A stretch of DNA of 64,000 bases, taken from contig JAKQEM010000024.1 of the NCBI GenBank assembly GCA_029558515.1, positions 57,164-121,163 of the forward strand, read 5' to 3'. The stretch's first letter is position 1. Each line of letters begins with the position of its first letter. The notes beneath the pieces were generated by a model. That model ran no database searches and had not been told where the DNA came from. It saw nothing but the letters and a program-made list of their open reading frames with translations. Positions 1,879 to 26,387 of this stretch are shown one piece after another. The DNA comes from a bacterium. GTDB taxonomy: Bacteria; Patescibacteriota; Gracilibacteria; Peribacterales; Peribacteraceae. The translations under genes were made by a program, and so were the position numbers.

Positions 1879-2625
1879 ATGTCCCGCATCCTACTGTGTC
1901 TGCACGGCTGGGGAGGATCCAAAGAGTCCTTTCGGGAATTGCGCGACGCATTGAAGGAAACGGATCTGCTCATCCTGACACCGGATCTGCCGGGATTCGG
2001 AGACGAGCCGGAACCGGATCGTCCGTGGTCCGTGGATGAGTACGCCGACTGGGTGGAACAGTGGTACAAGAGGCAATCTGACACGAGCCAACAGCCAATA
2101 GCCCTACTGGGCCACTCCCACGGCGGCCGCATCGCCATCAAACTTGCCGCCCGCCACTCACCACTCACTACTCACAACTCACCACTTCTTATTTCTCACC
2201 TCTACCTTTGCGCCGCCGCAGGCATCCACCACCCGCGCGTGCTCCGACGATCTGTCGGTTTTCTCTTGGCTAAAATCGGCGCACTCGTTTTCCGTATCCC
2301 CGGCATCCGCGCACTGGAGCCACAGGGGAAAAAAGTGCTCTACCGCTTGATGCGCGTGCACGATTACGAGCGGGCGTCGCCGATCATGCGTGAGACGATG
2401 CGACGTGTTCGGAATGAAGATCTGACGACGCACCTCTCCTCCATCACCGTTCCCACCGATATCTTCTGGGGCACGGACGATACGATGACACCCCTGAAAG
2501 ACGGCCGCCTGATGCATCGGCTGATCAAAGGGAGTCACCTGCACGTCTTCCCGGGCATCCGCCACCGCGTCCACCGCGATAAGGCGCAGGACATTGCATC
2601 CGTGATTCGGTCACAGGTTGGGTAG
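1879..2625 (+). CDS. Alpha/beta-fold hydrolase
   Basis: ILLCLHGWGGS, nucleophile elbow GHSHGG, and a C-terminal H in GIRHRVH. The ORF opens at 1825 and the ATG at 1879 was chosen by typical N-terminal length. It contains an in-frame heptamer array. Confidence 0.7.
   Translation: MSRILLCLHGWGGSKESFRELRDALKETDLLILTPDLPGFGDEPEPDRPWSVDEYADWVEQWYKRQSDTSQQPIALLGHSHGGRIAIKLAARHSPLTTHNSPLLISHLYLCAAAGIHHPRVLRRSVGFLLAKIGALVFRIPGIRALEPQGKKVLYRLMRVHDYERASPIMRETMRRVRNEDLTTHLSSITVPTDIFWGTDDTMTPLKDGRLMHRLIKGSHLHVFPGIRHRVHRDKAQDIASVIRSQVG
2155..2203. repeat. In-frame heptamer array inside the hydrolase gene
   Basis: CACTCAC CACTCAC TACTCAC AACTCAC CACTTCT TATTTCT CACCTCT: seven phased 7-mers, translated HSPLTTHNSPLLISHLY. 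Confidence 0.85.
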
Positions 2626-2784
2626 CAGCACAAACATGTACACGAAGTACATGGATGCCAGAACGAAACCTGCGGCAGTCTGCTCGAATGCCGTCGGTGC
2701 GCGTCGCGTGAGCTTCATAGAGAAGGTGGGTATGTGCTGATATAATAACATAAATCAGTATTATATGCAATATCCTGATGCGCT

Positions 2785-4491
2785 ATGCTTCCCATCTTCA
2801 TGGCTTTGATCCTCTCGCTCCTCGTCCTCCTGGCCTCCCTCTCCCCTCTGCTCACGTTCAGCAGACTCTTTCAAATGAAAGAATGGCGCCTCGACCGCCT
2901 GCGTGAGCAACTTCGACAGGAAGGATGGAGCAATACTCTGCTCAGCAAAACCAGAATCTATGCCGGATTTGGATGGATGCTTTTCGTCCTCGTTGCGCTA
3001 CTCCTGCACGTCTTGCGTGTGACGGATATCTGGGAATATCGCATGATCAGTACGGGAAGCACCGCTCTCGTAGAACAATGGTACAAAGGGCTGCTCATCA
3101 TACTCTCGCTGACGGGACTCATGCAGTTCATACGAGGCAAACAGCACGTGCCCATTTTTACGAGGAAAGCGATGCTCATCCTGTGCGTGACTCTTGGCAT
3201 CAACCTGCTGATGGTGTACTTGCTCTCCGCATACACTCTGTGGGTACTCGATACACCGGGCAACCCGATACCGGTGCAACCGCTCCAATGGATGGTGATA
3301 TTCCTGCCCTTTGTGCAGCCATTCATCGTTCTTGTTGCTTGGATGCTACTCCTCCCTCTCGATCGCCTCCTCAAGAATCGTATCTTCGCACAAGCAAAAA
3401 CCTTGCGAGCGCAATGGAAGAATCCCATCGTCATCGGCATCGCGGGGAGCGTCGGGAAGACGACGGTGAAGGAATTGCTCGCAACGGTCCTCGCGGATCT
3501 GCACCCGCTGACCACGCCGGAACATGTGAACACGGAAATGGGTGTCTCCCAGTGGCTCATGAGGGAAATGAAAAACGAACAACGAACAACGAAAAACGAT
3601 GGTGTGCTCATCATCGAAATGGGTGCCTATCGCAGAGGAGAAATCGCGCTCCTCAGTTCGATCATCCGCCCGACTATCGGCGTCATCACGGCGCTGGGCT
3701 CGGATCACCTGGCGCTCTTTGGATCGGAAGAAGCCATCGTGCAGGCCAATGGAGAATTGATTGAAGCACTGCCACGAGACGGACACGCATTCCTCTACGG
3801 CGACAATACTGCCACCCGATCGCTGAAAAATCGTGCACCCTGCCCCGTCACCCTCGTGGGCACACAGCCTCACAACGATCAGCAAGCGAATGCAATCACA
3901 GAAAATGAACATGCTGTATCGTTTGAAACGAGGACACGAAATAACGAAATAACGATGTCTTCCATCTCCGTCCCCCTCCACGGCCTCCATAACGTAAACA
4001 ACATTCTCCTCGCCGTCGCCGTCGCCCGCCATCTCGGGATCACCGATGACCGCATCCGAGAGCTTCTCGCGGCACATCGTCCCCTCCGGACGACATTCCA
4101 TGTGCGGCATGAGCAAGGTGTTTGTCTCCTGGATGACACGTACAACATCAGTCCCTTGAGCCTGCGTGCCGCCATCGATTGGGCGGGGAATCAAACGCAA
4201 CGACCGCGTATACTGCTCACGAGCGGACTGCTGGAAACCGGCAACGCGGAGGATCGATTTCATGAGGAATCGGGTACATTCGCACAAGGGAAACTGGAAC
4301 ACGTCATCTTCACATCTGACCGCGGACGAACGGCATTTGCGCAAGGTTACGGCAAGGATGTGGAACGACTGACGGATGTGACGGAACGTGCGGTACCCGG
4401 TGCGCTGCTCCTCTGCGTCGGACGCATGTCTCCTGCAACCGTGCAGCGTCTGCTGCCCCACCCATCAACGAACAACGAAGTAACGAAATAA
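2785..4491 (+). CDS. murF: UDP-N-acetylmuramoyl-tripeptide--D-alanyl-D-alanine ligase (MurF-type Mur ligase) with an N-terminal multi-TM domain
   Basis: The P-loop is GIAGSVGKTT. Further Mur ligase signatures are IIEMGA, GVITALGSDHL, LHGLHNVNNILLAVAVA and DDTYNISPLS. The first ~200 aa are hydrophobic helices. Confidence 0.8.
   Translation: MLPIFMALILSLLVLLASLSPLLTFSRLFQMKEWRLDRLREQLRQEGWSNTLLSKTRIYAGFGWMLFVLVALLLHVLRVTDIWEYRMISTGSTALVEQWYKGLLIILSLTGLMQFIRGKQHVPIFTRKAMLILCVTLGINLLMVYLLSAYTLWVLDTPGNPIPVQPLQWMVIFLPFVQPFIVLVAWMLLLPLDRLLKNRIFAQAKTLRAQWKNPIVIGIAGSVGKTTVKELLATVLADLHPLTTPEHVNTEMGVSQWLMREMKNEQRTTKNDGVLIIEMGAYRRGEIALLSSIIRPTIGVITALGSDHLALFGSEEAIVQANGELIEALPRDGHAFLYGDNTATRSLKNRAPCPVTLVGTQPHNDQQANAITENEHAVSFETRTRNNEITMSSISVPLHGLHNVNNILLAVAVARHLGITDDRIRELLAAHRPLRTTFHVRHEQGVCLLDDTYNISPLSLRAAIDWAGNQTQRPRILLTSGLLETGNAEDRFHEESGTFAQGKLEHVIFTSDRGRTAFAQGYGKDVERLTDVTERAVPGALLLCVGRMSPATVQRLLPHPSTNNEVTK
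3571..3600. repeat. In-frame AACGAAC heptamer array in murF
   Basis: AACGAAC AACGAAC AACGAAA AACGAT, translated KNEQRTTKND. Confidence 0.8.
3926..3957. repeat. In-frame ACGAAATA octamer repeat in murF
   Basis: ACGAGGAC ACGAAATA ACGAAATA ACGATG, translated TRTRNNEITM. Confidence 0.7.
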
Positions 4492-4520
4492 CGAACTAAC
4501 GAAGTAACGAACTAACGAAC
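4466..4520. repeat. Tandem TAACGAAN octamer array filling the murF-DegT spacer
   Basis: CAACGAA CAACGAAG TAACGAAA TAACGAAC TAACGAAG TAACGAAC TAACGAAC. The murF stop (4489-4491) is one of the TAA copies. The array ends 1 nt before the ATG at 4522. Confidence 0.9.
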
Positions 4521-4521
4521 C

Positions 4522-5817
4522 ATGTCCCCCCCCATTCACCACACCTTCGGCCCCCTGGCAAATACGCGGCACATGCTGTCGGCGTCCGGGCTCATCCTGC
4601 GACCGTGGCGGTGGCGATCGGGACCGGCGACGGCAGCATTGGCCCGAGGTATGGAAACGTGCATGAATGCCGCCACATCCTCCCCAAAGCCCGCGGTCTC
4701 GTTATGGGGATCCGGCCGCGAGGCTCTGTTGGTCGCACTGCGGGCAATCCCTGCACAACCCGGCGACGAGGTGATCGTCCAGGGCTACACCTGCGTCGTC
4801 GTCGTCAATGCGATCCGCGCCGCGGGCCTTCTGCCCGTGTTCGTCGACATCGATCCGGACACCCTCAATCTCGATCCCGCTGAAGTGGAAATGGCCGTCA
4901 GCCCGAAAACGCGCGCGATTCTGTGCCAACACACCTTCGGCATCCCCGGCCCCTTGAGAGAACTCAAAGAAATCTGCGATGCACATCACATCCTGCTCAT
5001 CGAAGACTGCGCGCACATCCTCCCCGACGATGCAAGACCATCGGGCATCGGCAAAACGGGACACATGGCGTTCTTCAGCTTCGGCCGCGACAAAGCGATC
5101 TCCGGCGTCACGGGCGGCGCGCTGATCGTGCGGGAGGAAGCGTACAGGGCCGCCGTGCAGAAACAGGCGGAGGAAGCCAAACCCCTCCCCCGTTCCGTCA
5201 TCCTGCGACTGCTCTGCTACCCGCTGCTCTACGTACTCCTGCGCCCGCTCTACGGACTATGGATCGGCAGAGCGATGCTGGCGCTCGCGGGCAAGACCGG
5301 TGTGCTCGTGCCCATCCTGACCCGGCGAGAGAAAGAAGGATCGATGTCACCCGCAGTCACCACCATGCCGAATGCCTGTGCGCATCTCGCATTGAAACAA
5401 CTGCACACTATTCGCACCATCAACGATCATCGCCGCATGCTGACACGATTCTATCTGGAAGAGATCGACCGAAGAGAATGGAGGATTGCCTCAAAACCGG
5501 ACGATACTGCTCATCCATACATCCCCGGGCGCATCACATCCGATCTCCCCCTGCAGAAATTCCCCCTCTTTGTGCCCGGCGCCGAGCGCATCCGGCAGCA
5601 ACTCAAGAAACAAAACATCCACCTCCACGACGGTTGGACCGGCTGCGTGATTTGCCCGCCTGCCGTGGACGCATCCGCACTGGGCTACAAGGATGGCCAA
5701 GACCCCGATGCCGAACTCTGCGGCACACAGATTTTAAGTCTGCCAACGCATCCGGGGATGACACATCAGCAGGCATTGAAGCTGATTGAAGCGATTGAAC
5801 AACATCTGAACACCTAA
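4522..5817 (+). CDS. DegT/DnrJ/EryC1/StrS-family PLP-dependent aminotransferase
   Basis: GSGREALLVAL, GDEVIVQGYTCVVVVNAI, IEDCAH and FSFGRDKAISGVTGGA (the Schiff-base Lys region) are typical of the family. Confidence 0.8.
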   Translation: MSPPIHHTFGPLANTRHMLSASGLILRPWRWRSGPATAALARGMETCMNAATSSPKPAVSLWGSGREALLVALRAIPAQPGDEVIVQGYTCVVVVNAIRAAGLLPVFVDIDPDTLNLDPAEVEMAVSPKTRAILCQHTFGIPGPLRELKEICDAHHILLIEDCAHILPDDARPSGIGKTGHMAFFSFGRDKAISGVTGGALIVREEAYRAAVQKQAEEAKPLPRSVILRLLCYPLLYVLLRPLYGLWIGRAMLALAGKTGVLVPILTRREKEGSMSPAVTTMPNACAHLALKQLHTIRTINDHRRMLTRFYLEEIDRREWRIASKPDDTAHPYIPGRITSDLPLQKFPLFVPGAERIRQQLKKQNIHLHDGWTGCVICPPAVDASALGYKDGQDPDAELCGTQILSLPTHPGMTHQQALKLIEAIEQHLNT

Positions 5818-5894
5818 AAATATGCGATACTTTGAAATAGGTAACAAATCCGGTTCGATGAAAGCAAACGAACAAAACGTACACAACGTCTGGG

Positions 5895-6058
5895 GGCGCC
5901 GCCACAGGGGGTGAAGGGGGAGCCCCGCCACAAAGCGTTCGCGAGGCGATTGTGACTGAAGCCTTGGAAGGAGCAATCGCCGAGCCGCGGGGCGGGCGGA
6001 GGGGCATTGGCGGCGCCGTCCTTTCTTGGTCACTTCTTTGGACGGGCAAAGAAGTGAC
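5895..6058 (+). other. Nested-stem structured element plus a 12-bp hairpin upstream of the FemAB gene
   Basis: GGCGCCGCC (5895-5903) pairs with GGCGGCGCC (6009-6017). GGCGATTG (5945-5952) pairs with CAATCGCC (5974-5981). GTCACTTCTTTG (6029-6040) pairs perfectly with CAAAGAAGTGAC (6047-6058). Confidence 0.35.
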
Positions 6059-6092
6059 AAATAAAGAAACAACTTCCGCTATCATCCTCCCG

Positions 6093-7223
6093 ATGCACGT
6101 CCAACCCGCCACCGATGCTCAAGCTTGGGAATCGTTCCTGACGAACCGCCCTGATGCCCTCTTTCTGCAAAGCTGGACGATGGGCGAAGTGTACCGGGAC
6201 ATCGGGCAGGAGCCCGTGCGATTGGAAATACGGAACGACTCGGGTGCCATCAGCGGCATCTGCCAAGCCATCGTGGTCCCGGCCCGGCGCGGCAGACACC
6301 TGATGGTGCAGTACGGACCGGTGCTGGAAGATCCCGCCGCCCTCTCTCCTCTCCTCGATACACTGAAAGACATCGCTCGAGATCATCATTGCTCTTTCCT
6401 TCGCATCAGCCCATTCTGGCCGGAATCCCAAATCCCAAATCCCAAATCCCAAATCCCCGATTCTCTTCCCTCACCGCTCCATCTGCTCTCTGAGTACACC
6501 TGGTACATTCCCCTGAGACAAATTGATCCATGGGCGGAATTACGAACAAGCGAATCAATGCATCAACGAATCAACGACTATGCGGCCCCCGTCACAGAAG
6601 AATCCATCCTGAAGAACATGCGCAAAACGACTCGCAACCTGATCGGCAGGGCACAACGTGAAGGCGTCACCGTCGTCGCCTCCTCCCATCCATCGGCAGA
6701 TCTGAACATCTACTTTCGGCTGCAGAAGGAAACGACGCACCGGCATGGATTCGTCCCGTATCGCGACTCCTTCATCCGCGCACAGGTGGCGCACTTCGCA
6801 CCCAAAGGACAAGCCATCGTGTACATCGCACGGTACAAAGACGAACCGGTCGCCGCATCGGTCCACATGAGCTACGCAAGCATCACCAGCTACCATCACG
6901 GCGCCTCCACGCACAAGTACGCCAAAATCCCCGCAAGTTACCTGCTGCAATGGACCGCGATTCGTGAAGCCCTGCATCGCGGCGACTGTGTCTACAACTT
7001 CTGGGGCATCGCTCCGCCGAGTCATGAGTCTCGAGTCTTGAGTGATGAGCAACCGCTCAAAACTCACCGCTCCGGACACCCCTTCGCCGGCGTCACCACG
7101 TTCAAAACTGGATTCGGCGGAAAACCTCTCCCGCTGATGCACTGCCGCGATGTGCCCCTTTCCCGCACGTACCGATTCACGCGAGCATTTGAGACGGTGC
7201 GCAAGTGGAAACGAGGATTCTAG
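6093..7223 (+). CDS. FemAB-family peptidoglycan interpeptide-bridge aminoacyltransferase
   Basis: FLQSWTMGEVY, NMRKTTRNLIGRAQREGV, YHHGAST, YLLQW and FKTGFGG match the FemAB/lipid II peptidyltransferase pattern. Start is at the ATG at 6093 (MHVQP). Confidence 0.75.
   Translation: MHVQPATDAQAWESFLTNRPDALFLQSWTMGEVYRDIGQEPVRLEIRNDSGAISGICQAIVVPARRGRHLMVQYGPVLEDPAALSPLLDTLKDIARDHHCSFLRISPFWPESQIPNPKSQIPDSLPSPLHLLSEYTWYIPLRQIDPWAELRTSESMHQRINDYAAPVTEESILKNMRKTTRNLIGRAQREGVTVVASSHPSADLNIYFRLQKETTHRHGFVPYRDSFIRAQVAHFAPKGQAIVYIARYKDEPVAASVHMSYASITSYHHGASTHKYAKIPASYLLQWTAIREALHRGDCVYNFWGIAPPSHESRVLSDEQPLKTHRSGHPFAGVTTFKTGFGGKPLPLMHCRDVPLSRTYRFTRAFETVRKWKRGF
6424..6458. repeat. In-frame AATCCCA heptamer array in the FemAB gene
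   Basis: AATCCCA x4 followed by AATCCCC, translated SQIPNPKSQIP. Confidence 0.9.
7023..7050. repeat. In-frame NNTGAGT heptamer array in the FemAB gene
   Basis: CATGAGT CTCGAGT CTTGAGT GATGAGC. This is the reverse complement of the AAGACT/GAGACT word family seen at 30448-30468 and 50255-50310. Confidence 0.7.
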
Positions 7224-7239
7224 AAGGTACACTCTCTGC

Positions 7240-7725
7240 ATGCCTCGCAAAGTCACCACCTCCGAAGAAAAATCCGCTGCCACTCCTTCCGGCGGTCCGG
7301 CCCCGGCCTCCGCACCGAAGATCCCCGCCCCGGCTCCGGAAGCGTCGACCCTCGCCGTTTCCACCGGGCTTGGCGAAGTGCAGGACCGCTTGGATATGGT
7401 GCTCCTGTATCTGCACAACATGGACCGTCGCGACAAGTGGCGCACAAGAGGAGGATTCCTGCGGGGTCTCATTTCGATCATCCCCGTCCTCATCGCCGTG
7501 TGGGCCGCGTGGTACTTCTACATGTACGGCGACATCCTCATGAAGAAACTCACCATGGAAGTGGTGCGCCAGTCGGCCGCCTACTCCGAGAACACCATGG
7601 AGAATCGCATCCAACAGCTCGTGCCCCTCATTGAGAATTTGACCATTCCCGATGACCGGCTCCCTCCTGCATCACCCCCCGCCGACTCAGAGCCACCTGC
7701 AGAAGCAGTGTTGCCGGAGGAATGA
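7240..7725 (+). CDS. Hypothetical membrane protein (one TM, Pro/Ala-rich N-terminus)
   Basis: ATG at 7240. The TM segment is LISIIPVLIAVWAAWYFYMY. No family was recognised. Confidence 0.5.
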   Translation: MPRKVTTSEEKSAATPSGGPAPASAPKIPAPAPEASTLAVSTGLGEVQDRLDMVLLYLHNMDRRDKWRTRGGFLRGLISIIPVLIAVWAAWYFYMYGDILMKKLTMEVVRQSAAYSENTMENRIQQLVPLIENLTIPDDRLPPASPPADSEPPAEAVLPEE

Positions 7726-7865
7726 TCAGGCAATCAGCGCCTTCCACTCGCTCCACGAAAGTCCTCTCCCGGGATACGCGGAATTCTTGAAGGGCCACGC
7801 ATCGTGCATCCACTGTCACACAGGGCAATACAACACGTCCTTGAGCCCGCTTTTTCCCCTATCCC

Positions 7866-7910
7866 ACCTCCTTCGTCCCTAGTCCCTAGTCCCCCGTCCT
7901 CATCCCTCCC
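7866..7910. repeat. TCGTCCC/TAGTCCC heptamer array at the 3' end of a convergent gene
   Basis: TCGTCCC TAGTCCC TAGTCCC CCGTCCT CATCCCT. The stop codon of the 7900..9336 gene lies inside the array. Confidence 0.8.
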
Positions 7911-9336
7911 CCTTCGCAAATTTCACCACCTCCTCCGCCGTCATGGTGGGAAAGACGGCGAATGCAGGAATGCGGAGGAACTCGGAGCGCGAGAACGTGC
8001 GCTTGCCGCCGTCGGTGATGCCAAAGAGATAGCCGGCACCGGCGGAAAGCGTGGCGATGCGATCATTGGTACCGCCCGAGGGATACGCGACGGCGAAAAC
8101 CGTCCTGCCGGTGACCTGCTCCAACAGAGCCCGACTCTGCGTGAGTTCCAATTCCGCCTGCGCATTGGTCAGCGCGCGCAGATCATCGCCCGTGTGCGTA
8201 CCCGACTGCAAATCGAAACCATTGGCCAGAAGCGTCTGCACCGTTTTCTCCGTGATGCCCGTCAACCCCAAATATTTGGAACTGATGAAGAGCGTCGCAT
8301 CGATACTGAGCGCATTGAGCGTATCGGAAATGGCAGAAACGTTGACAGGCGTCACACCCGATACCGCCACGACGATGCGGTTCTCCGGCAAACGAACGTC
8401 ACGACCCTGCTGCTCCAGAAGGAGTGCGTGAAACTGCCGCAGAGTGATGAACGTGTACCCCGCCTGCTTGAGAGCACCGACGTGCGCACCCATCGATTGC
8501 AGCGCCTCCTCCGTCGCCCCGTCCAAACGATAGAGGAGCACGGGAAGCGTAAACGTATCCTGTCGAACGAGGAAGTTGGGACGGATGGCTGTCAGATAGG
8601 ACAGCGATACGAAGCCTGATTTGCCTTCGTGCGTCACTGCCGCCCAACCGTTTTCCACAGCCGTCGGGCGCAGGAGCGTCTGCCCGGGAATTTCTCCCAA
8701 TTTCGCACTCTGCTGACTGGGTTCACTGCGAAAGTTCACAAATCTGTAACTCACCACATACAGATTGTCATACGCCTTCTGTTCCTCCTCCAGTCGTTCT
8801 TCACTGACGACCCTGCCGATGTACCGATGCGCCACGAAGCCTTCCGTCCCGTCCGGTAAGCGCACCTTGGCCCACTCGCCGTCGACAAATTCCACCAGAT
8901 CGAGCGGATCCCCCCGATCCAATCGTCTCAAAAATGCACCCCGGGCGGAGGGAGCATTGCGAAAATTGAGGAACGTATTGGTGACCTGGAAACGTTTCTG
9001 ATCCGTCGTGGGAGTGGTGCGCATCGCATCGAAGGCCGCAGCATTCGATATATCCAACACCGCCGTCCGCTGCCCTCCCGTTCCCGTCACGATCATGCCG
9101 GTTCCTCCGGCAATCGATTCCAGATACGGAACGGGAAGCTCTGACCCTGACGCGGCATCCCCCCCTTCCGCCAGATCGCGGTACCGGGCAACATCATCCT
9201 CTGTGAAACTATAGACATCCTCGGGCAGTTCCGGAGGCGCACACCCTGCAAAGAGGATGCCGAATGCCGCAAGCAGTAAAAACGCAATGAGCGGGCGGCG
9301 CGAGGAACAGCGACGGTGGACGACGAAACGTGACAT
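7900..9336 (-). CDS. Lipoprotein with two SH3b-like domains and a polysaccharide-deacetylase (NodB)-like C-terminal domain
   Basis: Lipobox LFAGC. There are two FRNAPS/FRSEPS ... GWAKV/GWAAV SH3b-like units. The C-terminus follows the NodB order (ATLFISSKYLG ... GFDLQSGTHTGDDL ... FAVAYPSGG), but TFDDG is replaced by VAVSGV. Confidence 0.55.
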   Translation of the reverse strand: MSRFVVHRRCSSRRPLIAFLLLAAFGILFAGCAPPELPEDVYSFTEDDVARYRDLAEGGDAASGSELPVPYLESIAGGTGMIVTGTGGQRTAVLDISNAAAFDAMRTTPTTDQKRFQVTNTFLNFRNAPSARGAFLRRLDRGDPLDLVEFVDGEWAKVRLPDGTEGFVAHRYIGRVVSEERLEEEQKAYDNLYVVSYRFVNFRSEPSQQSAKLGEIPGQTLLRPTAVENGWAAVTHEGKSGFVSLSYLTAIRPNFLVRQDTFTLPVLLYRLDGATEEALQSMGAHVGALKQAGYTFITLRQFHALLLEQQGRDVRLPENRIVVAVSGVTPVNVSAISDTLNALSIDATLFISSKYLGLTGITEKTVQTLLANGFDLQSGTHTGDDLRALTNAQAELELTQSRALLEQVTGRTVFAVAYPSGGTNDRIATLSAGAGYLFGITDGGKRTFSRSEFLRIPAFAVFPTMTAEEVVKFAKGEG

Positions 9337-9353
9337 AGGAGAACGGGGAAAAA

Positions 9354-11054
9354 TTACATCCGGTCGGGAACGCGGATGGTGAGAAGGGAAGCCCCCGTCC
9401 GCAGCATATCCGCGACGGAAGCAGTGAGGACCAGACGCAGGTCACGCAGCGGTGCAGTGGCCTGCAGAATGGGGACGCTGTTGTAAAATGAATTGAACGA
9501 TTGGCAGAGTGCGTACAAATAATTGGTCAACTTATGCGGCATACGCGCGTCACGACTCTCCGCGAGGACTATGGGAAACCGCAGTAACATGAGCAAAAGC
9601 TTCCTGTCTTCCGGTTCCAACACATCGACTGCAGGCAACACCGGATCACCCGCGAGAGCGGCTTTCCGCAGCACCGATCGAGCACGCGCATGCGTGTACT
9701 GCAGATACGGCGCGCTGTTGCCCTCGAAGCTGAGCATCCGATCCCAATCAAACACGATGTCCATGGCGCGGTTCTGACTGAGGATACCGTACGCCACCGC
9801 ACCGACACCCATCATCTCTGCCAGATCCTTCGGATCATCAGCCTGGATGGCATCTCCGCGTTCCGTGATGATATCTCCCGCTCGTTTCACGGCTTCATCC
9901 AAGAGTTGCCTCATGCGCAGCGAAGTCCCCTTGCGCGTACTCATGGCCGCTCCGGAAAAACGCATCCGACCGAAGACCGTGTGCTCATGCTCGGGCATCT
10001 CCCATCCCAGCAGCGCCGCCGTCGCAAAGACCTGCTGAAAATGCAGGCGTTGCGCCACATCAACAACGTAATACATGGCCGATGGATGTGCCGTGTCGAT
10101 ACGGTAGCGAATCATCGCCAGATCGCGCGTGGCGTAAAGCGTCGCTCCATCCCCCTTGCGAATCAGAAGCGGCGGCATGCCGGTCTCCTCCGCAAACGGC
10201 ACGATGAGCGAACCACCCTCTCCCTCCTGAAAAACTCCCTTCGCGATACCTTCTTCGATGATCGGCTGCATTCTGTTTTCGTAGAAACTCTCTCCCGTCT
10301 CACGATCGATGTGCACATGGAGACGCACATAAATTTCGTCCAAATCCTTCTTTGTCACCGCGACGGTATCCGCCCAGAATGAACGCAGTGCCGCATCGCC
10401 TTCTTCAATCTTGCGAAACGCGGCACGTGCCGCATCATCCAGCGTTGCATCCTTTTCCGCCTCCTCGTGGAAGCGAACATAGAGAGCCAATAAGTCCTCG
10501 ACGGTAACATCCTTGAGAGATTTCTTCTTATCCCCCCAGCGATCGTATGCGACCCACAGCTTTCCAAACTGCGTCCCCCAATCACCGGGGTAACTCCAAC
10601 CGATGACGTGCGCTCCCGTATGACGATAGAGGTTGATGATCGCCTGTCCGATGATGTGAGAGCCCAAATGATGCGCTCCCAGCGGTTTGGCGATGTTCGG
10701 ACCGCAGAAATCCACGATAACGGGATTCTCGTCGCGCTCGGAAACGGGAGCGATCGCCGCATGGGCTTCCTTCCACGCCTCCAGGAGTCTCGCCACCGTC
10801 AGACGGATATTCACGTACCCCGGTCCCGCCACCTCAGCATGCTCCACAGAAGGTGAAAGACTGATGGCATCCGCAATGGATCGTGCAATCTCCTGCGGTT
10901 TCTTCCCAAGCCCACCGGCGATCTTCAGTGCGACGGATGTGGAGAGATCTCCTTGCGAAGAATCCGGCGGGAACACCCACGCCACATCCGCATCGGGCAG
11001 CCCGTAGAGTGATGCGATGATCTGCCGGGTTTCGGTGGAAAGGTGCGTGAACAT
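9354..11054 (-). CDS. argS: Arginine--tRNA ligase
   Basis: Class I HIGH-like AHHLGSHIIG. The C-terminal anticodon-binding motif SFEGNSAPYLQYTHARARS is typical of ArgS. Confidence 0.9.
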   Translation of the reverse strand: MFTHLSTETRQIIASLYGLPDADVAWVFPPDSSQGDLSTSVALKIAGGLGKKPQEIARSIADAISLSPSVEHAEVAGPGYVNIRLTVARLLEAWKEAHAAIAPVSERDENPVIVDFCGPNIAKPLGAHHLGSHIIGQAIINLYRHTGAHVIGWSYPGDWGTQFGKLWVAYDRWGDKKKSLKDVTVEDLLALYVRFHEEAEKDATLDDAARAAFRKIEEGDAALRSFWADTVAVTKKDLDEIYVRLHVHIDRETGESFYENRMQPIIEEGIAKGVFQEGEGGSLIVPFAEETGMPPLLIRKGDGATLYATRDLAMIRYRIDTAHPSAMYYVVDVAQRLHFQQVFATAALLGWEMPEHEHTVFGRMRFSGAAMSTRKGTSLRMRQLLDEAVKRAGDIITERGDAIQADDPKDLAEMMGVGAVAYGILSQNRAMDIVFDWDRMLSFEGNSAPYLQYTHARARSVLRKAALAGDPVLPAVDVLEPEDRKLLLMLLRFPIVLAESRDARMPHKLTNYLYALCQSFNSFYNSVPILQATAPLRDLRLVLTASVADMLRTGASLLTIRVPDRM

Positions 11055-11204
11055 ACCGGAAGAACAAAAGTTCTATTCAAGAGACACCGGAGGACTATAG
11101 CAGGTCCGATAAGCCCATACATTCGGACACACCATTTGTTCTTGCACCAGGAATGAACTAATGTTTTGAACACAAATCCGGCCCGTATTCGACTATGCGG
11201 CTAA

Positions 11205-11233
11205 TTGCTGCCAAATAGATTTCATGGTATAAT
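11205..11233 (+). promoter_or_regulatory. Sigma70-like promoter that would give a leaderless transcript
   Basis: TTGCTG (11205-11210), a 17-nt spacer, TATAAT (11228-11233), with the GTG start at 11240, 7 nt downstream. Confidence 0.45.
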
Positions 11234-11239
11234 TGTACT

Positions 11240-12082
11240 GTGAATCGGAAACTACGCTCAGCGGTCCTCACAGCGTTCGTCGGCCTCCTGCTCGCAAGTT
11301 GCGCGCACGATGACGAGGAAACGGCGGAGGCGCCCACGGTGGCCGGCGCCGCATCCGGCGTGGAATGGTCCTGGCAGATTGCGCACGACCCGATCAACGT
11401 GCGCCGGCTGCGACCGTCTGCGCTGCTGGGCACGTACACAGCGCAGTACATCATCCAGCTGTCCACGTTCGGCAGCGCACTGGATGGCATTCAGGCGTAC
11501 GTGGATCTGCGGGGAGACACGGAAGCGAATCGTGACGAGGATTTTGCACTGCTCGAAACGCTGGGAGCAGCTCTGCAAACCGACATTCCGGATATGCTCA
11601 ACCGCAGTCCCGTGCGTGCCACGGCCTTCGATGCGTACGTCGGCAGTTTGGCGGATGTCATGCGTCGTGCAAACGCGCGACTCGAACGGCTGGAACAGGA
11701 GCTGGAGACGATCAACGACGATCGCAGGACGAGACGGCAGGAAGCCGGCGTGATCCAGCGCGAACTCAATGCGGCGCTGCGTGAGGACAAGTACGCGCTG
11801 GCCAGTGAAATCCAGCAACGGCTGCTGGCGGCTGAAATCGCCCTCTCGGAAATCGAAGCCAAGGAGGACACGCAACGCAGCCTCATACGGCTCTACGAAA
11901 AACTGCTGACCCTGGGAGAACGCCGCCTCGTTTCCATGCACGAGAACCGCGAAATACTCATTGCGGGACTGAAAGTCATCGAATTGCCCGGCATCGACGC
12001 CCTGGGCATCCTGGAGCAGGGTGACACCCGGGCGCTGCGCAGGGACGGCGGTCCGTATGAATTCCTGTTTGACGGGCTGTAA
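11240..12082 (+). CDS. Hypothetical coiled-coil lipoprotein, probably co-transcribed with the VirB4-like ATPase
   Basis: GTG start, lipobox LLLASC, and a long heptad-like helical C-terminus. Its stop is 5 nt before the next ATG. Confidence 0.55.
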   Translation: MNRKLRSAVLTAFVGLLLASCAHDDEETAEAPTVAGAASGVEWSWQIAHDPINVRRLRPSALLGTYTAQYIIQLSTFGSALDGIQAYVDLRGDTEANRDEDFALLETLGAALQTDIPDMLNRSPVRATAFDAYVGSLADVMRRANARLERLEQELETINDDRRTRRQEAGVIQRELNAALREDKYALASEIQQRLLAAEIALSEIEAKEDTQRSLIRLYEKLLTLGERRLVSMHENREILIAGLKVIELPGIDALGILEQGDTRALRRDGGPYEFLFDGL

Positions 12083-12087
12083 CCAAA

Positions 12088-14031: not shown

Positions 14032-14165
14032 CCAGACGGGGAAAACGGAGTAACAGGACGGGAATAAGAGTAACAGAGTAACAGAGTAACAGAGTAACAG
14101 GTCTGTATTGAACGGGGCTTCCAACCCTGTTACTCAGTTATTCGGTTATTCCGATACTCCCTCCT
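14026..14165. repeat. Inverted octamer arrays between the convergent VirB4-like and DHH genes
   Basis: GAGTAACA occurs as 4 tandem copies (14068-14099). GAGTAACAGG (14092-14101) pairs perfectly with CCTGTTACTC (14126-14135). The right arm is TGTTACTC AGTTATTC GGTTATTC CGATACTC. Both stop codons (14029-14031, 14146-14148) lie inside the arms. Confidence 0.9.
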
Positions 14166-15285: not shown

Positions 15286-16155
15286 ATGTCTGCTTCCGTC
15301 ATCTTCTGCGGCACGCCCGCCTTCGCTGTTCCGTCACTGGAAGCGCTCGCCGCCGATCCGGCATTTGACGTGTCGCTCGTCATCACCCAGCCCGATCGCC
15401 CGGTGGGTCGCAGCAAAGAACTCATTGCCTCTCCCGTGAAACAAGCAGCGCAACGATTGCATCTTCCCGTCGCACAACCGGAGAATATCAATCACATGCT
15501 CGCAGATACCCAATACCCAATCCCCAATCCCCAATTTCTCATCGTCGTCGCCTACGGCCAAATCCTCTCGCAACACATCCTCGACCTTCCGCAGATCGCC
15601 CCCGTGAATGTCCACGGTTCGCTGCTCCCGCGCTGGCGCGGCGCTTCTCCCGTCGAACATGCGATCCTCGCGGGGGACACCGAAACCGGCGTGACCATTC
15701 AGATCATGGAGACGACGCTGGACACCGGCCCCATCCTCGCGATGCGCAAGACACCGATTGGTCCGCGCGACACGACGCTCCAACTCAAGGAACGTCTGTG
15801 TGTGATCGGTGCAGATCTCTTGGTGCAGACACTGAAAGCACCTCTCCGGCCCATCCCACAACCGACTGAAGGTATCACCGTCTGTCGCAAGCTCTCGCGG
15901 GAAGATGGCAGAGCCGAGCCGCAAACTATGACTGCGCAGCAAATCGATCGCATGGTCCGCGCACTGGTCCCCTGGCCGGGCGTCACCTGCTTCATCAATG
16001 GTCAAGCACTCAAACTCATCGCAACGGCACTCGAACCGACGGACACGTCGATTCCCCTCCCCTGCGCGCAGGGGACGACACTGCATCTCGTCACCGTGCA
16101 GGAAGCGGGGAAGAGGGCAATGACGGGGCAGGAGTGGGAGAGAGGGCAGCGTTAA
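15286..16155 (+). CDS. fmt: Methionyl-tRNA formyltransferase
   Basis: VIFCGTPAFAVPSL, ITQPDRPVGR and NVHGSLLPRWRGASPVEHAI are classic Fmt motifs. Confidence 0.9.
   Translation: MSASVIFCGTPAFAVPSLEALAADPAFDVSLVITQPDRPVGRSKELIASPVKQAAQRLHLPVAQPENINHMLADTQYPIPNPQFLIVVAYGQILSQHILDLPQIAPVNVHGSLLPRWRGASPVEHAILAGDTETGVTIQIMETTLDTGPILAMRKTPIGPRDTTLQLKERLCVIGADLLVQTLKAPLRPIPQPTEGITVCRKLSREDGRAEPQTMTAQQIDRMVRALVPWPGVTCFINGQALKLIATALEPTDTSIPLPCAQGTTLHLVTVQEAGKRAMTGQEWERGQR
15508..15535. repeat. In-frame ACCCAAT/CCCCAAT heptamer array in fmt
   Basis: ACCCAAT ACCCAAT CCCCAAT CCCCAAT, translated TQYPIPNPQ. Confidence 0.9.
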
Positions 16156-16182
16156 CCGGCGATTTCAATTGCCGGAAATGAA

Positions 16183-16204: not shown

Positions 16205-16238
16205 CCCAATACTCATAACTCTCAACTCTCAACTCTTC
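16204..16238. repeat. ACTCTCA heptamer array at a convergent gene end
   Basis: ACTCATA ACTCTCA ACTCTCA ACTCTTC. The stop of the 16237..16542 gene lies in the last word. The word family is the same as at 50332-50373. Confidence 0.85.
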
Positions 16239-16542: not shown

Positions 16543-16679
16543 ACGAATATGTGGAAAAGAATAGGATGCTCCTCTTCTGGCTTCGTGCAGTCCCGCGACC
16601 GAAACATACGAGGTCGGAACACGCTCCGTCGTTCAAAGTGAGAGCGGGGAGAGCGTAGCAAACAACATGCAAAATGCAA

Positions 16680-20571: not shown

Positions 20572-21894
20572 TTACATCGCCGCGCAGTTCTCCGGACGCC
20601 GGAAACTCGGCATGGCCGCGTACGTCGGCGCGTAGTTGTTCCCCGCGCTCCACACTTGGAAACCGCAGACGCCCGCATCGGTGAGCGCCTGCATCTGATC
20701 TTTCATGTTCTGCGTGGTGACGCCGTACCCCTGGATCCACGGACGAATCTTCTTGCTGTGCTCGGGACCCAGCAATTCCTGATAGCCCGTCATCGTGCGA
20801 TACACCAGCCAGTACATGCGGCTGCCGGGATTGCGGCCGGGCACGTAGTACTCGGGACTCGTGAAGGTGGCCGGATACGCCATGGGGGAAATGATGTCGA
20901 CCATCGGCGCGAACGCCACGATGTCCTGTCCGAGCGTCTCCAGATTCACGGGGTAATTCCATCCGAGAATGGCGTATGAGCTCATACCAAAGAGCGTCTT
21001 CGGGCCGCACTCGTCGATGGTCGCGCGCGTCATCTCCACGAATTTTCGCACCTTCTCCGCTTTCTCCTGCCCGGTCCAGACCTTGAGCGCGCCGAAGTTC
21101 GCCGTGGAGAAGCGAATGTAATCGAGGTTGATTTCATCGATGCCCATCTTGGCCAGCGAACAGATCACCTCGCGGTTGTACTGCAGCGCCAGTTCATTGG
21201 ACGGATCGATCCAACCGTAACTGAGGACCGCATTGGACACGGGATGCCGCACGAGCGTTTCGGGAGCACGGGACGTGATGCCGTCATCCTTCACCGCGAT
21301 GAGACGACCCATGACGTACAACCCCTCCGCATGCGCTTTCTCGATGATCGCAGGCAGATCGTACATCGGCTGCACCAACTCATACTGATTGGCGAGCGAG
21401 GCGTCGGTGGAGAAGTACACGCGCGATCCTTTCACATCGATGATGATGGCATTGCCTCCGGCCGCCTTCACATCACGCATGGTATCATCCAGAAACTGCG
21501 CTCTCCCCGCGCTGCCGGATGTCAGGAAAACACCCGTCACATTCCGCATGATCTCCTGATGCGACGGTCCGGTGAAGACGGGAACAGGCGGCGTCTCGGG
21601 GGCAGGGGGCAATCCGGCCGCTTTTCTGCGCTGCATCATGCGTTCCAGAATGCGAGAAACTACTCCGGCTCTTTTGATGGAACCGGTCGCAGAAGCAGTC
21701 GAAGGCAGCGGGCCCTGCATAATGCCGGAGTTTTTGAGTTGTTGCTGCGCACGGGGAGAGATGACCGCCGCCTGCCCGAACTCGGCGAATGTTTCCATGC
21801 GGTACGCCAGCATCTCCACCGGCTCGGCATCCGCAATTTGGATGGCGGCAAAAGGAGCAAGGAGCAATGCGGGCACGGCAAGAGAGGCAAACAT
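20572..21894 (-). CDS. Secreted putative glycoside hydrolase-like TIM-barrel protein (DUF4015-like)
   Basis: The signal peptide is MFASLAVPALLLAPFAAIQIADA. GVFLTSGSAG..NAIIIDVKG..., LYVMGRLIAVKDD, WIDPSN and IDEINLDYIRF match the DUF4015 pattern. Confidence 0.65.
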   Translation of the reverse strand: MFASLAVPALLLAPFAAIQIADAEPVEMLAYRMETFAEFGQAAVISPRAQQQLKNSGIMQGPLPSTASATGSIKRAGVVSRILERMMQRRKAAGLPPAPETPPVPVFTGPSHQEIMRNVTGVFLTSGSAGRAQFLDDTMRDVKAAGGNAIIIDVKGSRVYFSTDASLANQYELVQPMYDLPAIIEKAHAEGLYVMGRLIAVKDDGITSRAPETLVRHPVSNAVLSYGWIDPSNELALQYNREVICSLAKMGIDEINLDYIRFSTANFGALKVWTGQEKAEKVRKFVEMTRATIDECGPKTLFGMSSYAILGWNYPVNLETLGQDIVAFAPMVDIISPMAYPATFTSPEYYVPGRNPGSRMYWLVYRTMTGYQELLGPEHSKKIRPWIQGYGVTTQNMKDQMQALTDAGVCGFQVWSAGNNYAPTYAAMPSFRRPENCAAM

Positions 21895-23041: not shown

Positions 23042-23056
23042 CCGGGGGTGGAGGAA

Positions 23057-25187: not shown

Positions 25188-25193
25188 TACAAT
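25188..25193 (+). promoter_or_regulatory. -10-like box 6 nt upstream of the GT4 start codon
   Basis: TACAAT at 25188-25193 with the ATG at 25200. No convincing -35 element. Confidence 0.3.
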
Positions 25194-25199
25194 GCCCGC

Positions 25200-26387
25200 A
25201 TGAAAGTCGCTCTCGTCCATGAACTCCTCACTATGCGCGGCGGCGCCGAGCGCGTGCTGCGCGTCTTCGCACGACTATTTCCCGATGCGCCCATCTTTAC
25301 GCTCCTATATGACGAGAAGAAACTGGGCGACTGGTTTCCGCGAGAGCGCATCCGCACCAGCCCGCTGCAATCCAGAGCCCGCTTCCTGAATCATTTCGCA
25401 TTTCGCATTTCGCATTTCGCATTCGATCATCATCTCTACCTCCGCAGATTCCCCGCCGCAGTGGAATCCTGGGACTTCTCCGACTTCGATCTGGTCATTT
25501 CCAATTCATCCGCCTTCACCCACGGCATCCTGACCAACGGCAAACCCAAACACCTCTGCTTCGTGCAGTCTCCCGCCCGCTATCTGTGGGATCGGACGCA
25601 TGATGTGCTCTGGCAAGCGAGCACCGGTCCCTTTGGCCCGCTCAAGCGGTTCTATCTCTCACGCACATTCCATGACCTGCGCGTGTGGGATGCGGAAGCC
25701 GCCCCCCGCCCCGACGTGCTGCTGACATCCTCGCGCACGGTGCAACGTCGCATCCAATTGTACTGGAATCGCGAGAGCACGGTGCTCTATCCTCCCATTG
25801 ATGATTTCTGGTTTGAAAAGAAGCGAACAACGAACAACCCATTCGACACGCTCAGGGCAAGCGAACAACGAACAACATCGCCATTCCTCGTCGTCTCCAC
25901 CCTCGTTCCCTACAAGCGCATCGACATCGCCGTGGAAGCGTGTACGAGGGGGAACATTCCCCTGCTCATCGCCGGCGACGGGCCGGACCGGAAGAGACTG
26001 GAAAGAATAGCGGGACCGACCGTGCGGTTCCTCGGCTATCAACACAGTGAACAACTGAAGGAGCTGTATACGGAAGCCACGGCAACTCTCTTCGTCGGAC
26101 AGGAAGACTTCGGACTGGTCCCGCTGGAATCGATGGCATGCGGAACACCTGTGATCGCCTATCGTGCGGGAGGAGCGTTGGAAACGGTGATGGAGGGGGA
26201 AACGGGCACATTCTTTGATGAGCAAACGGCGGAAAACCTTCTGCGCACCATCCTCAACTTTGATCACAAAATATACTCAAAAGAAAAGTGCATAAAGAAC
26301 GCTGAAAAGTTCAGAGAATCAACGTTCGAACAACAATTGTTATCAAATATTGATGCATTGATGCATTCCGACGCCCGCAAAGGCTGA
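25200..26387 (+). CDS. GT4-family glycosyltransferase
   Basis: KVALVHELLTMRGGAERV is at the N-terminus. EDFGLVPLESMACGTPVIA..GGALETV is the E(x7)E region. Confidence 0.8.
   Translation: MKVALVHELLTMRGGAERVLRVFARLFPDAPIFTLLYDEKKLGDWFPRERIRTSPLQSRARFLNHFAFRISHFAFDHHLYLRRFPAAVESWDFSDFDLVISNSSAFTHGILTNGKPKHLCFVQSPARYLWDRTHDVLWQASTGPFGPLKRFYLSRTFHDLRVWDAEAAPRPDVLLTSSRTVQRRIQLYWNRESTVLYPPIDDFWFEKKRTTNNPFDTLRASEQRTTSPFLVVSTLVPYKRIDIAVEACTRGNIPLLIAGDGPDRKRLERIAGPTVRFLGYQHSEQLKELYTEATATLFVGQEDFGLVPLESMACGTPVIAYRAGGALETVMEGETGTFFDEQTAENLLRTILNFDHKIYSKEKCIKNAEKFRESTFEQQLLSNIDALMHSDARKG
25392..25426. repeat. In-frame CATTTCG heptamer array in the GT4 gene
   Basis: CATTTCG x4 followed by CATTCGA, translated HFAFRISHFAFD. 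The reverse complement of this word (GCGAAAT) recurs at 59357-59384. Confidence 0.9.
25821..25876. repeat. Two copies of AAGCGAACAACGAACAAC inside the GT4 gene
   Basis: An 18-nt direct repeat at 25821-25838 and 25859-25876, translated KRTTNN ... SEQRTTS. Confidence 0.85.

Follow-up and report, generated by a model that had tools for sequence, protein, structure and literature searches.

Cyanobacterial STRR heptamers, reportedly described by Mazel and colleagues in 1990 with units CCCCAGT, TTGGTCA and CAACAGT, are said to be mainly intergenic, and the housekeeping proteins of Plasmodium falciparum carry slippage-driven, fast-evolving and hydrophilic low-complexity insertions that separate conserved blocks in essential enzymes. 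The long simple sequence repeats of bacteria have units of 5-11 bases, heptanucleotides being the most abundant in the survey of Mrazek et al. (2007) as cited in PMC4679880 and PMC4692102; the same papers relate that repeats within coding regions were mostly of multiple-of-three units, and PMC4679880 that 7 bases was proposed by Mrazek et al. to be the stretch that the polymerase holds. G-rich heptamers, GGGAATC in Xanthomonas and GGGGA(T/C)T in Nostoc, are reported to be under-represented within coding sequence (Rehm et al. 2015, PMC4692102). TAACTGA heptamers of Beggiatoaceae, Cyanobacteria and Bacteroidetes form arrays of 2-6 copies that immediately precede start codons and overlap upstream stops; where copies occasionally fall inside ORFs, they encode peptides of 7-residue periodicity, mostly at the termini of proteins (MacGregor 2015, PMC4679880). 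The tandem repeats of Borgs, which are extrachromosomal elements, are fast-evolving and lie both between and within ORFs; selection acts on those within ORFs, which encode disordered segments and have frame-compatible units that yield perfect amino-acid repeats, and the elements also have conserved hotspots of repeats (PMC9879509).

The window analysed here is a stretch of 64,000 nucleotides from the genome of a groundwater bacterium of the Peribacteraceae (Peregrinibacteria, CPR). Arrays were located with Tandem Repeats Finder (TRF) and with a separate detector (score of at least 11), which gave the counts, with 20 dinucleotide-preserving shuffles of the window as the null; gene calls past 36.4 kb are our own rough calls, and the comparison sample came to about 120 kb, drawn from four related genomes. 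The excess over composition that characterises long simple sequence repeats was found at period 7 (16 arrays against 0.05 expected) and period 8 (7 against 0.0), while the other periods from 2 to 15 were at chance level in the window, with the exception of 14, which is twice 7. Perfect two-copy duplications were likewise in excess at periods 7 (23 against 3.7 expected) and 8 (7 against 1.1), and showed no excess over expectation at periods 4 and 5. Non-coding sequence holds 13 arrays in 13.4 kb and coding sequence 12 in 50.6 kb, an approximately fourfold higher density outside genes; about ten are in frame, within murD, an alpha/beta hydrolase gene, murF, a FemAB-family gene, fmt and a GT4 glycosyltransferase gene (Table 1). 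Dozens of distinct units are represented and most arrays have their own; heptamer units common to different loci reach just 2-3 times the null, inside the range of random samples. One unit family, AACGAA/TAACGAA, has at least nine loci in the window and is also found in relatives A, B and C and in L009, and the murF site 2 array matches a distant array at 51764-51794 in 28 of 31 bases; both observations lie outside what purely local slippage predicts.

An earlier note on this DNA had placed such arrays in frame inside conserved housekeeping genes, and in this it was borne out: TRF finds an array at every place named, from 254-285 through 7018-7043, 25824-25838 and 25862-25876, Pfam domains identify the hydrolase, murF (Mur ligase M and C), FemAB, fmt and GT4 genes, synteny and a full-length gene in L005 identify murD, and every array-bearing ORF examined is intact. 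All of the peptides it quoted were reproduced, except that TRTRNNEITM begins at 3928 and not 3926. Two of the arrays, 3936-3955 and 6554-6577, are built of 8-base units and are not heptamers, and the arrays at 254-285 (TRF period 7/14) and 7019-7043 are weak, with 73-83% matches. The encoded peptide has a period of 7 residues only where the array exceeds three units.

Table 1. Arrays in and between genes of the window, with the peptides they encode.
Array	Position	Strand	Gene and place	Peptide
AACGAGC/AACGAAG-type, weak	254..285	+	murD (1-402), site D, C-terminal domain	KRETNNEQRRT
GGAATAAC, 8-base	388..422	+	gives murD TAA stop	
Inverted array, partner of 388..422	458-484		gives GrpE stop (minus strand)	
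CGAAGGA (sense strand)	495..519	-	GrpE, C-terminal tail	EDEGRGTKD
CCACTCA x4.7	2154..2186	+	alpha/beta hydrolase gene (1825-2625)	HSPLTTHNSPL
A(A/C)AACGA x4.9	3566..3599	+	murF (2785-4491), site 1	EMKNEQRTTKND
ACGAAATA x2.5, 8-base	3936..3955	+	murF, site 2	RNNEIT
AACGAANT x6.9	4467..4520	+	murF, C-terminal tail	STNNEVTK
AATCCCA x4.9, perfect	6424..6457	+	FemAB-family gene (6093-7223), site 1	SQIPNPKSQIP
ACGAATCA, 8-base	6542..6577	+	FemAB, site 2	SMHQRIND
GAGTC(T/A)(T/C) x3.6	7019..7043	+	FemAB, site 3	SHESRVLSD
AGAGTAAC x4.25	14067..14100	+	intergenic	
ATACCCA/ATCCCCA x4.3	15506..15535	+	fmt (15286-16155)	DTQYPIPNPQ
CATTTCG x4.6, perfect	25392..25423	+	GT4 gene (25200-26387), site 1	HFAFRISHFAF
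AGCGAACAACGAACAAC, two copies in different reading frames	25822-25838 and 25860-25876	+	GT4, linker between the two domains	KRTTNN and SEQRTT

The arrays resemble long simple sequence repeats in their short head-to-tail arrangement, strong period-7 excess, proposed origin by slippage and scatter across phyla, control loci also being positive in Calothrix, a Chloroflexi MAG and a Verrucomicrobia MAG, but differ in that 7- and 8-base units lie within core enzymes. As among the heptamers of Rehm et al., the units AATCCCA, ATCCCCA and GGGATTG form arrays with four to five G/C tracts, and inverted pairs lie between convergent genes, although most window units are not G-rich. Arrays of that quadruplex type would be mostly intergenic, with four units or more that each hold a G3-4 tract. 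At least four C3 tracts are present in three arrays (6427-6450, with five on the FemAB sense strand, 15509-15532 and 39091-39116), two of which are inside genes, and four G tracts were read by eye in the inverted partner at 39006-39036; most window arrays are without G/C tracts. Two inverted pairs fold well in prediction, the hairpin at 380-500 at -43.2 kcal/mol (z = -4.3) and, between convergent genes, the array at 14067..14100 with its partner at 14129-14151 (z = -3.8).

With the TAACTGA repeats the window shares arrays before start codons and over upstream stops: 8-base arrays supply the TAA stop of four genes, and the AACGAANT array, which gives that of murF and is also delimited as 4474-4520, stops two bases short of the DegT ATG (start codon 4522). 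TAAC-containing 8-base arrays were found both where genes end and immediately ahead of start codons. In both systems survival of insertions only at the protein periphery is suggested, but one unit dominates there, related heptamers being seldom repeated, whereas dozens occur here, and arrays lie at orthologous loops within conserved domains; no tandem TAACTGA occurs in the window. The STRR heptamers are likewise genome-dispersed heptanucleotide tandem arrays and differ in phylum; none of their three reported units forms tandems in the window in any rotation on either strand. Like the Borg repeats, the arrays are fast-evolving, occur in genes, where they are subject to selection and encode disordered segments, and between them, and occupy conserved hotspots, but they are short, lie in chromosomal housekeeping genes and have units of 7 or 8 bases, which are not multiples of three, and the frame-compatible units with perfect amino-acid repeats seen in Borgs were not found. 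The insertions of P. falciparum are similarly hydrophilic segments between conserved blocks of enzymes, but these belong to a eukaryote, are much longer and derive from codon-based, AT-driven repeats.

In-gene arrays are confined to sequence-tolerant stretches, namely variable loops, domain linkers and protein ends. All seven segments tested fell within the lowest 0.4-5.6% of equal-length windows by identity to orthologs, and in AlphaFold models the arrays coincide with pLDDT minima and form the lowest-confidence coils: the fmt array is the only low-confidence stretch of its model, residues 69-72 at GT4 site 1 have pLDDT <50 and the GT4 linker averages 55. In the hydrolase the array at 2154..2186 comes after the KLAAR helix, itself downstream of the GHSHGG nucleophile motif, and before the strand that follows. 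The arrays encode mainly hydrophilic residues, with a hydrophobic share of 18% compared with 41% for the proteome. No in-gene array uses a stop in frame. The words inside genes had all been described as stop-free, which does not hold strictly, since three units carry stop codons that are kept out of frame: ACGAAATA in murF includes TAA yet ends after 2.5 copies, the FemAB site 3 unit GAGTCTT includes TGA, and the third is AGTCTTG in the Dus tail. Stop avoidance itself is evident from substitutions exactly where stops would be in frame, as the sole FemAB site 3 unit that would place TGA in frame reads GAGTCTC and the third AGCGGTA unit of L009 murF has TTA where TAA would be in frame.

The same loops are array-encoded across related species, with other units and often at unchanged length. 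In relatives at 48-74% identity, arrays occupy the same loops with differing units that are sometimes in register, and in four or five species it is the same small set of loops that arrays encode. At the hydrolase site, AACGAAG occurs in relative A and CAACGAA in relative B; at murF site 1, relatives A, B and L009 have arrays of other units; at murD site D, L009 and L012 also have arrays and L003 is 3 residues shorter. FemAB site 1 has AAATGCA in relative A, in which AAATGCA-type units are also found in murL, murD and murF, while site 2 varies in length, with a AGGAGAGG array in relative A and 10 fewer residues in L003. The fmt loop has 24 codons in the window, in relative A (TCTCACA) and in relative B (ACACCTA). 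At GT4 site 1, ATTATCC of relative A is in register with ATTTCGC, with the same three differences per unit, and the linker is variable in length and array-encoded in several orthologs, for example by PTPYALRPTPYALRPTPYAL in P0144, an ortholog with a PTPYAL unit at both GT4 sites. Among orthologs, 7-residue peptide periodicity is restricted to these loops, with 8 hits at lag 7 and 0 at lags 5, 6, 8 and 9 for GT4 and 3 against 0 for fmt. The TCTCACG array that relative A has at murD site C matches the non-repetitive TCTCGTCTCAC found there in L003. The recurrence of arrays with different units at the same loops therefore identifies these loops as long-lived hotspots at which units are replaced in concert.

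The array segments had been taken for insertions, which holds for hydrolase site 2 and murF site 2 but not for many others. The array at 2154..2186 adds 8 residues relative to L003, murF site 2 inserts 7 residues that most orthologs lack, and the GrpE tail encoded by an array is missing from L003. However, fmt aligns without gaps to E. coli Fmt across its array, the murF site 1 loop, though variable, is equal in length to that of relative A, the closest relative, and murD sites A and C are as long as in array-free relatives. The arithmetic by which three heptamers add seven codons is right, but indels do not come in multiples of 21 nucleotides, the length differences being +8, +10 and +12 residues at hydrolase site 2 and +7, +5 and +3 at murF site 2.

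Whole units are gained and lost much faster than point substitutions accumulate. The JGI contig L005 equals window 1-14483 plus one 8-base AGAGTAAC unit at 14067..14100 and is otherwise identical, L008 reproduces 15200-36387 exactly, and no further differences separate these contigs from the window over 35.7 kb. In relative A, L091, itself identical to L090, differs from L001 by one 7-base unit of an intergenic array and by nothing else over 8.4 kb. Whole-unit copy-number change, the hallmark of bacterial long simple sequence repeats, was thus found in two assembly pairs. Five of 12 Logan contig ends lie within arrays, L007 ending inside 14067..14100 and both L006 and L007 breaking inside FemAB site 1. 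Among the compared assemblies no coding array was directly observed to vary in copy number, this FemAB break being the sole hint; it is compatible with a longer allele and has the same signature as the break at the polymorphic array 14067..14100.

These data are probably best explained by slippage-prone 7- and 8-base repeats that are filtered by selection into tolerant loops, with units replaced in concert at hotspots. Strand slippage in replication or repair would make and reshape the arrays, and a single step of 7 or 8 bases would be a frameshift in an essential gene, so that only in-frame outcomes would survive. Such outcomes could be net three-unit changes or an expansion with a nearby compensating deletion; the three-unit (21-base) step is an assumption, and the loop-length differences between relatives are not multiples of seven residues. 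Repeated rounds may allow one variant unit to displace the rest, loop length being constrained throughout. The earlier note had proposed that arrays arise everywhere, are filtered by selection and generate lineage-specific low-complexity loops; the higher intergenic density, placement in the least conserved loops, low-confidence coils, stop avoidance and peptides that vary between lineages uphold wide production and filtering, but the same few loops recur across species.

Units such as AACGAAC could alternatively spread by inter-locus copying, through ectopic recombination, gene conversion or templated 'repeat-writing', with the in-gene arrays imported. The AACGAA family at its at least nine window loci and in relatives A, B, C and L009, the likeness of murF site 2 to 51764-51794, the PTPYAL unit at both GT4 sites of P0144 and the four genes with AAATGCA-type units in relative A all point this way, but copying is unlikely to be the explanation, as heptamer sharing is within the range of random samples, most arrays have their own unit, the murD site C unit fits the local ancestral sequence and selection alone would make hydrophilic, stop-free units recur. 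It is highly unlikely that the arrays are contingency loci at which one-unit slippage toggles, for example, the FemAB-family transferase or GT4 to give phase-variable cell-wall chemistry: arrays are found also in murD, murF and fmt, of which murD and murF belong to the essential peptidoglycan precursor pathway, they are short (2-5 units), they lie in variable loops away from 5' ends, and all recovered alleles, from assemblies only, are in frame. Single-unit changes are seen in populations, and a Logan contig does break at the longest perfect coding array, in FemAB, with the signature seen at 14067-14100; the genes hit are mainly envelope enzymes, but this gene set mirrors the sampled loci (mur cluster).

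Maintenance of the arrays, in genes too, by a function of the nucleic acid, be it a G-quadruplex or i-motif, a protein binding site or a translation signal, is very unlikely. Units at a given site are wholly different between species, so no sequence-specific function is conserved, and most coding units (AACGAAC, CCACTCA, CATTTCG) are unable to form quadruplexes, although the FemAB, fmt and 39076-39115 arrays have at least four C3 tracts and fmt has a Nostoc-type GGGGATT unit (PMC4692102). Inverted intergenic pairs with stable predicted hairpins, and TAAC-containing 8-base arrays at the ends of genes and immediately preceding start codons, make such a function plausible for intergenic arrays; for coding ones it is unnecessary.

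The heptamer excess itself was already known, mostly from intergenic sequence, and what is new here is that orthologous loops keep their arrays while the units change. If slippage filtered by selection repeatedly replaces the units at these hotspots, the loop peptide would then be set by the DNA-level dynamics of the array and not by selection on the peptide.

The arrays of this stretch are best explained as products of slippage that selection has limited to permissive segments, where they form long-lived hotspots of concerted unit turnover. Tandem Repeats Finder recovered an array at every position listed in an earlier note made from sequence alone (one start was 2 bases off), translation reproduced the peptides quoted there and the ORFs are all intact. 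A self-match detector found 16 period-7 and 7 period-8 arrays in the window vs 0.05 and 0.0 in dinucleotide-preserving shuffles; across periods 2-15 all others were at chance level except 14, i.e. 2x7. The preference for 7 and 8 is evident already at two copies, since perfect two-copy duplications number 23 against 3.7 expected for period 7 and 7 against 1.1 for period 8, with periods 4 and 5 as expected. The description of the arrays as heptameric fits most of them, although two in-gene arrays (3936-3955 and 6554-6577) have 8-base units; two of the in-gene arrays are weak. Assembly artefact and pseudogenes are rejected because assemblies made independently (JGI, NCBI, Logan) share the arrays, the reading frames are intact and motifs are conserved: GSVGKTT (murF) and HGSLLPRWRG (fmt) are invariant or nearly so in aligned orthologs, and GHSHGG of the hydrolase is conserved in 4/4 genomes.

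The closest protein relatives of the window's genes are named Candidatus Peribacteraceae, Peribacteria or Peregrinibacteria, and the 164-kb contig containing the window was found in NCBI, JGI, ENA and Logan. Syntenic DNA was fetched from relatives A (GCA_964478005.1), B (from SRR26784071) and C (from SRR33086890), whose murF genes are 58%, 59% and 53% identical to that of the window, and from further-off Peribacteria including L009 (48% identical). The genome scan yielded only six Peregrinibacteria loci, the remaining loci being used as controls. A and B are comparable to the window in array richness and C has few arrays; L009 also counts as heptamer-rich, and L010, L013 and L014 as heptamer-poor. 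Further population samples were sought in a metagenome scan with murF, which gave one distant match at 30% identity, and by an exact-protein look-up of P0001, which gave no match.

Arrays of A, B and L009 lie at the window's own loops, with units that differ (Table). The fmt loop comprises 24 codons in 3/3 species, yet is built from ATACCCA in the window, TCTCACA in A and ACACCTA in B. At GT4 site 1, four copies of ATTTCGC in the window face four copies of ATTATCC in A, in register and between identical flanks, and the three differences are identical in every unit; such a pattern is beyond independent point mutation, and the units were exchanged together. Where A has a TCTCACG array at murD site C, the equivalent position in C reads non-repetitive TCTCGTCTCAC, which points to a local seed that grew and overwrote its neighbours. 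Among aligned orthologs, peptides with a 7-residue period are confined to these loops: for GT4 orthologs, lag 7 gave 8 matches whereas lags 5, 6, 8 and 9 gave none, and the corresponding counts for fmt orthologs were 3 and 0.

Genes of the window (gene map, 1 to 26.4 kb), stop codons within arrays, inverted array pairs and Chloroflexi control genes
Feature	Coordinates	Strand	Remarks
murD, 3' end	1-402		Shared array loops: sites A to D
murD stop codon	400-402		Inside TAAC-containing 8-base array
GrpE	467-1066	minus	
GrpE stop codon	467-469		Inside TAAC-containing 8-base array
tRNA-Met			Listed between GrpE and GIY-YIG gene
GIY-YIG gene, small			Listed between tRNA-Met and hydrolase
Alpha/beta hydrolase	1825-2625		Shared array loops: sites 1 and 2
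murF, putative membrane domain at N-terminus	2785-4491		Shared array loops: sites 1 and 2
murF stop codon	4489-4491		Inside TAAC-containing 8-base array
DegT aminotransferase	4522-5817		
FemAB-family gene	6093-7223		Shared array loops: sites 1 to 3
DHH-family gene stop codon	14146-14148		Inside TAAC-containing 8-base array
fmt	15286-16155		Shared array loop: fmt loop
GT4 glycosyltransferase	25200-26387		Shared array loops: both sites
Hairpin pair	388-484		-43.2 kcal/mol, z = -4.3; convergent genes
Hairpin pair	14067-14151		-41.7 kcal/mol, z = -3.8; convergent genes
Hairpin pair	39006-39115		-43.8 kcal/mol, z = -2.3; two genes, one strand
L036 MurD (MAG K_DeepCast_250m_m2_317)	10559-12010		Long in-frame array(s) in Mur ligase domain
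L036 MurC (MAG K_DeepCast_250m_m2_317)	15642-17168		Long in-frame array(s) in Mur ligase domain

The shared loops are the least conserved parts of their proteins. When windows of equal length are ranked by their identity to orthologs, all seven array segments tested come in the bottom 0.4-5.6%, and the AlphaFold models agree, placing array segments in low-confidence coils. In the GT4 model, whose mean pLDDT is 83.9, confidence reaches its minima at both array sites (residues 61-80, mean 60-64; residues 211-220, the lowest internal block, 55), with one more low block away from the arrays (121-130, pLDDT 61), and the sole low block of the fmt model (mean 94.4) is a coil at residues 71-80. Together with a greater density of arrays outside genes (12 in 50.6 kb of coding sequence vs 13 in or straddling 13.4 kb of non-coding sequence), this makes the earlier proposal of a selective filter largely right. 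Several coding arrays lie in protein tails (Dus, class I tRNA synthetase, CAP-domain protein and GH57). Array-encoded residues are 18% hydrophobic vs 41% in the proteome, partly because of unit composition, as intergenic units would encode 25%.

The general label of insertions applies only to some sites. At hydrolase site 2 the window does carry an insertion, of 8 residues compared with L003 (relative C), the two closest relatives having 12 and 10 extra, and murF site 2 has 7 residues inserted relative to most of the 24 orthologs aligned. Meanwhile, murF site 1 (KNEQRTTKND) is a variable loop equal in length to that of the closest relative, the fmt array aligns without gaps to E. coli Fmt (1FMT), and 31 Peribacteraceae orthologs have a loop at least as long, and GT4 has variable-length segments at both sites (29 orthologs). 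Growth by quanta of seven codons, also suggested, is contradicted by the hydrolase differences of 8, 12 and 10 residues, none of them a multiple of seven codons, and no 21-base length steps are visible among the available relatives.

Slippage has direct evidence in the gain and loss of whole units at intergenic arrays. Over 14.5 kb, a JGI assembly from a different sample departs from the window only by an additional AGAGTAAC unit at 14067-14100, and over a further 21.2 kb it shows no difference at all; this AGAGTAAC copy-number polymorphism (21283-21324 of the JGI copy L005) thus amounts to one 8-base unit between assemblies otherwise identical over 35.7 kb. In relative A, the NCBI contig (L001, near 19978) and an independent Logan assembly (L091) differ by one intergenic 7-base unit only. 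Furthermore, 5/12 Logan contig ends lie in arrays, and contigs from the window's own population end with one flanking base plus 30 array bases at the polymorphic array 14067-14100 and at the FemAB array. No 31-mer occurs twice in a 34-base array, and we infer from assembler behaviour that exactly such a branch would form in the assembly graph if the sample also contained a longer allele. No length variants of coding arrays were seen in the assemblies, as would be the case were one-unit changes lethal or strongly deleterious.

An alternative is that units are copied between loci, and an AACGAA unit family does recur across loci and species; however, heptamer sharing among loci exceeds the null only 2-3 fold, inside the spread of null samples, and copying is therefore kept as a rival and not taken as the main explanation. 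A mobile mini-element in the GT4 linker, modelled on the small dispersed elements of Nostoc that insert into heptamer arrays, was rejected: the 21-22 bases between two CGAACAA mini-arrays have no second copy in the window at up to 3 mismatches. Slippage under selection, with concerted turnover of units, is the preferred reading.

The idea that in-gene words are all stop-free needs correcting, as three in-gene units include a stop codon. The murF array of 8-base unit ACGAAATA halts at 2.5 copies, right before TAA would enter the frame, the sole unit at FemAB 7019-7043 in which TGA is due in frame reads GAGTCTC, not GAGTCTT, and in the murF of a distant relative the third AGCGGTA unit carries TTA where an in-frame TAA would stand. 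Every intergenic or gene-terminal 8-base unit includes TAAC. Four genes (murD, murF, GrpE and a DHH-family gene) take their TAA stop from such arrays and therefore have array-encoded C-terminal tails of lineage-specific length; that of murF runs into the array at 4467-4520, the source of its stop codon. At 4474-4522 a AACGAANT array finishes two bases 5' of the DegT start codon with no Shine-Dalgarno-like sequence between them, resembling the repeat-bearing leaders of the Beggiatoaceae TAACTGA repeats. On the minus strand, at 59348-59437, AAATGCG heptamers and an 18-base repeat form the 5' end of a class I (Trp/Tyr-type) tRNA synthetase ORF; they precede the Pfam domain start, and the real start codon may lie downstream.

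Inverted pairs of intergenic arrays, two of them between convergent genes and one between genes on a single strand, are predicted to fold into long, stable hairpins and look like terminators built from repeats. A GT4/GT5-like gene and a GH57 gene are separated by a ~200-base spacer (50226-50422) made almost wholly of 4-5 different arrays in series, with units TGAGACG, ACGAGATA, CTCTCAA and CGTCCTT. Elsewhere in the window, which has a G+C content of ~56% and negative GC skew throughout, the stretch 42000-46000 has 46-49% G+C vs ~57% in the rest, few confident gene calls and a tRNA-Gly (45087-45160), and may be foreign DNA. The only Rfam matches were tRNAs, and the G+C-rich non-coding region between DegT and FemAB (5818-6092) had none; its motif GAGCCGCGGGGCGGGCGGAGGGGC recurs in relative B (L002 3' end). 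Just 3' of tRNA-Met and 5' of the GIY-YIG gene, 1336-1490 holds two CACGTGGCGCCGCC copies and the inverted repeat CACGTAAAAC...GTTTTACGTG. In this clade murF has an N-terminal extension of ~200 residues (2785-3400), membrane-domain-like in appearance, with a conserved LSPLLTF..LFQxKEWRLDRL motif common to 23/23 Peregrinibacteria orthologs aligned.

Among the long simple sequence repeats of many bacteria, those with heptanucleotide units are the most frequent, and a polymerase-contact explanation has been proposed for the 7-base step, according to Mrazek et al. (2007) as relayed in PMC4679880. G-rich heptamers of Xanthomonas and Nostoc are under-represented in genes (PMC4692102), the TAACTGA repeats of Beggiatoaceae adjoin start and stop codons and are rare inside ORFs, where they fall at protein ends (PMC4679880), and Borg elements carry frame-compatible repeats giving disordered regions (PMC9879509). 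The named units of these systems are absent from the window, save for a GGGGATT-type stretch in fmt. In-gene heptamers are not unique to this lineage, since a Chloroflexi MAG used as control (L036) has heptamer and octamer arrays within conserved domains of MurD and MurC (AATCTCA x6.7, CAAGCGG ~x15 and GGGAGCAG ~x9); the arrays of a Calothrix control locus are all intergenic. We found no account of such arrays recurring at orthologous loops while their units are replaced.

Since every slippage step shifts the frame, non-triplet units would be expected to disappear from essential genes, yet the arrays persist in enzymes that build the cell wall or serve translation initiation, and do so at the same loops in species sharing about half their residues, with units replaced wholesale. 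A bolder, tentative proposal, which we consider less likely than not, is that a lineage-specific process acting in 7-8-base steps continually rewrites permissive loops in essential enzymes, exchanging all units of an array together and in register at constant loop length, so that in Peribacteraceae the loops of MurD, MurF, Fmt, the FemAB-family protein and GT4 would be set by DNA repeat dynamics and not by peptide selection, and that AACGAAC-type units may spread between loci by an undescribed templated or recombinational mechanism. In practice, the arrays cause breaks in assemblies, displace the predicted ends of genes (an array supplies the stop codon of four genes here) and inflate apparent divergence in CPR protein alignments. 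The arrays also raise the question of frameshift load in a small-genome bacterium, and provide a testable case in which a mutational process, not selection on the protein, may drive loop turnover in conserved proteins.
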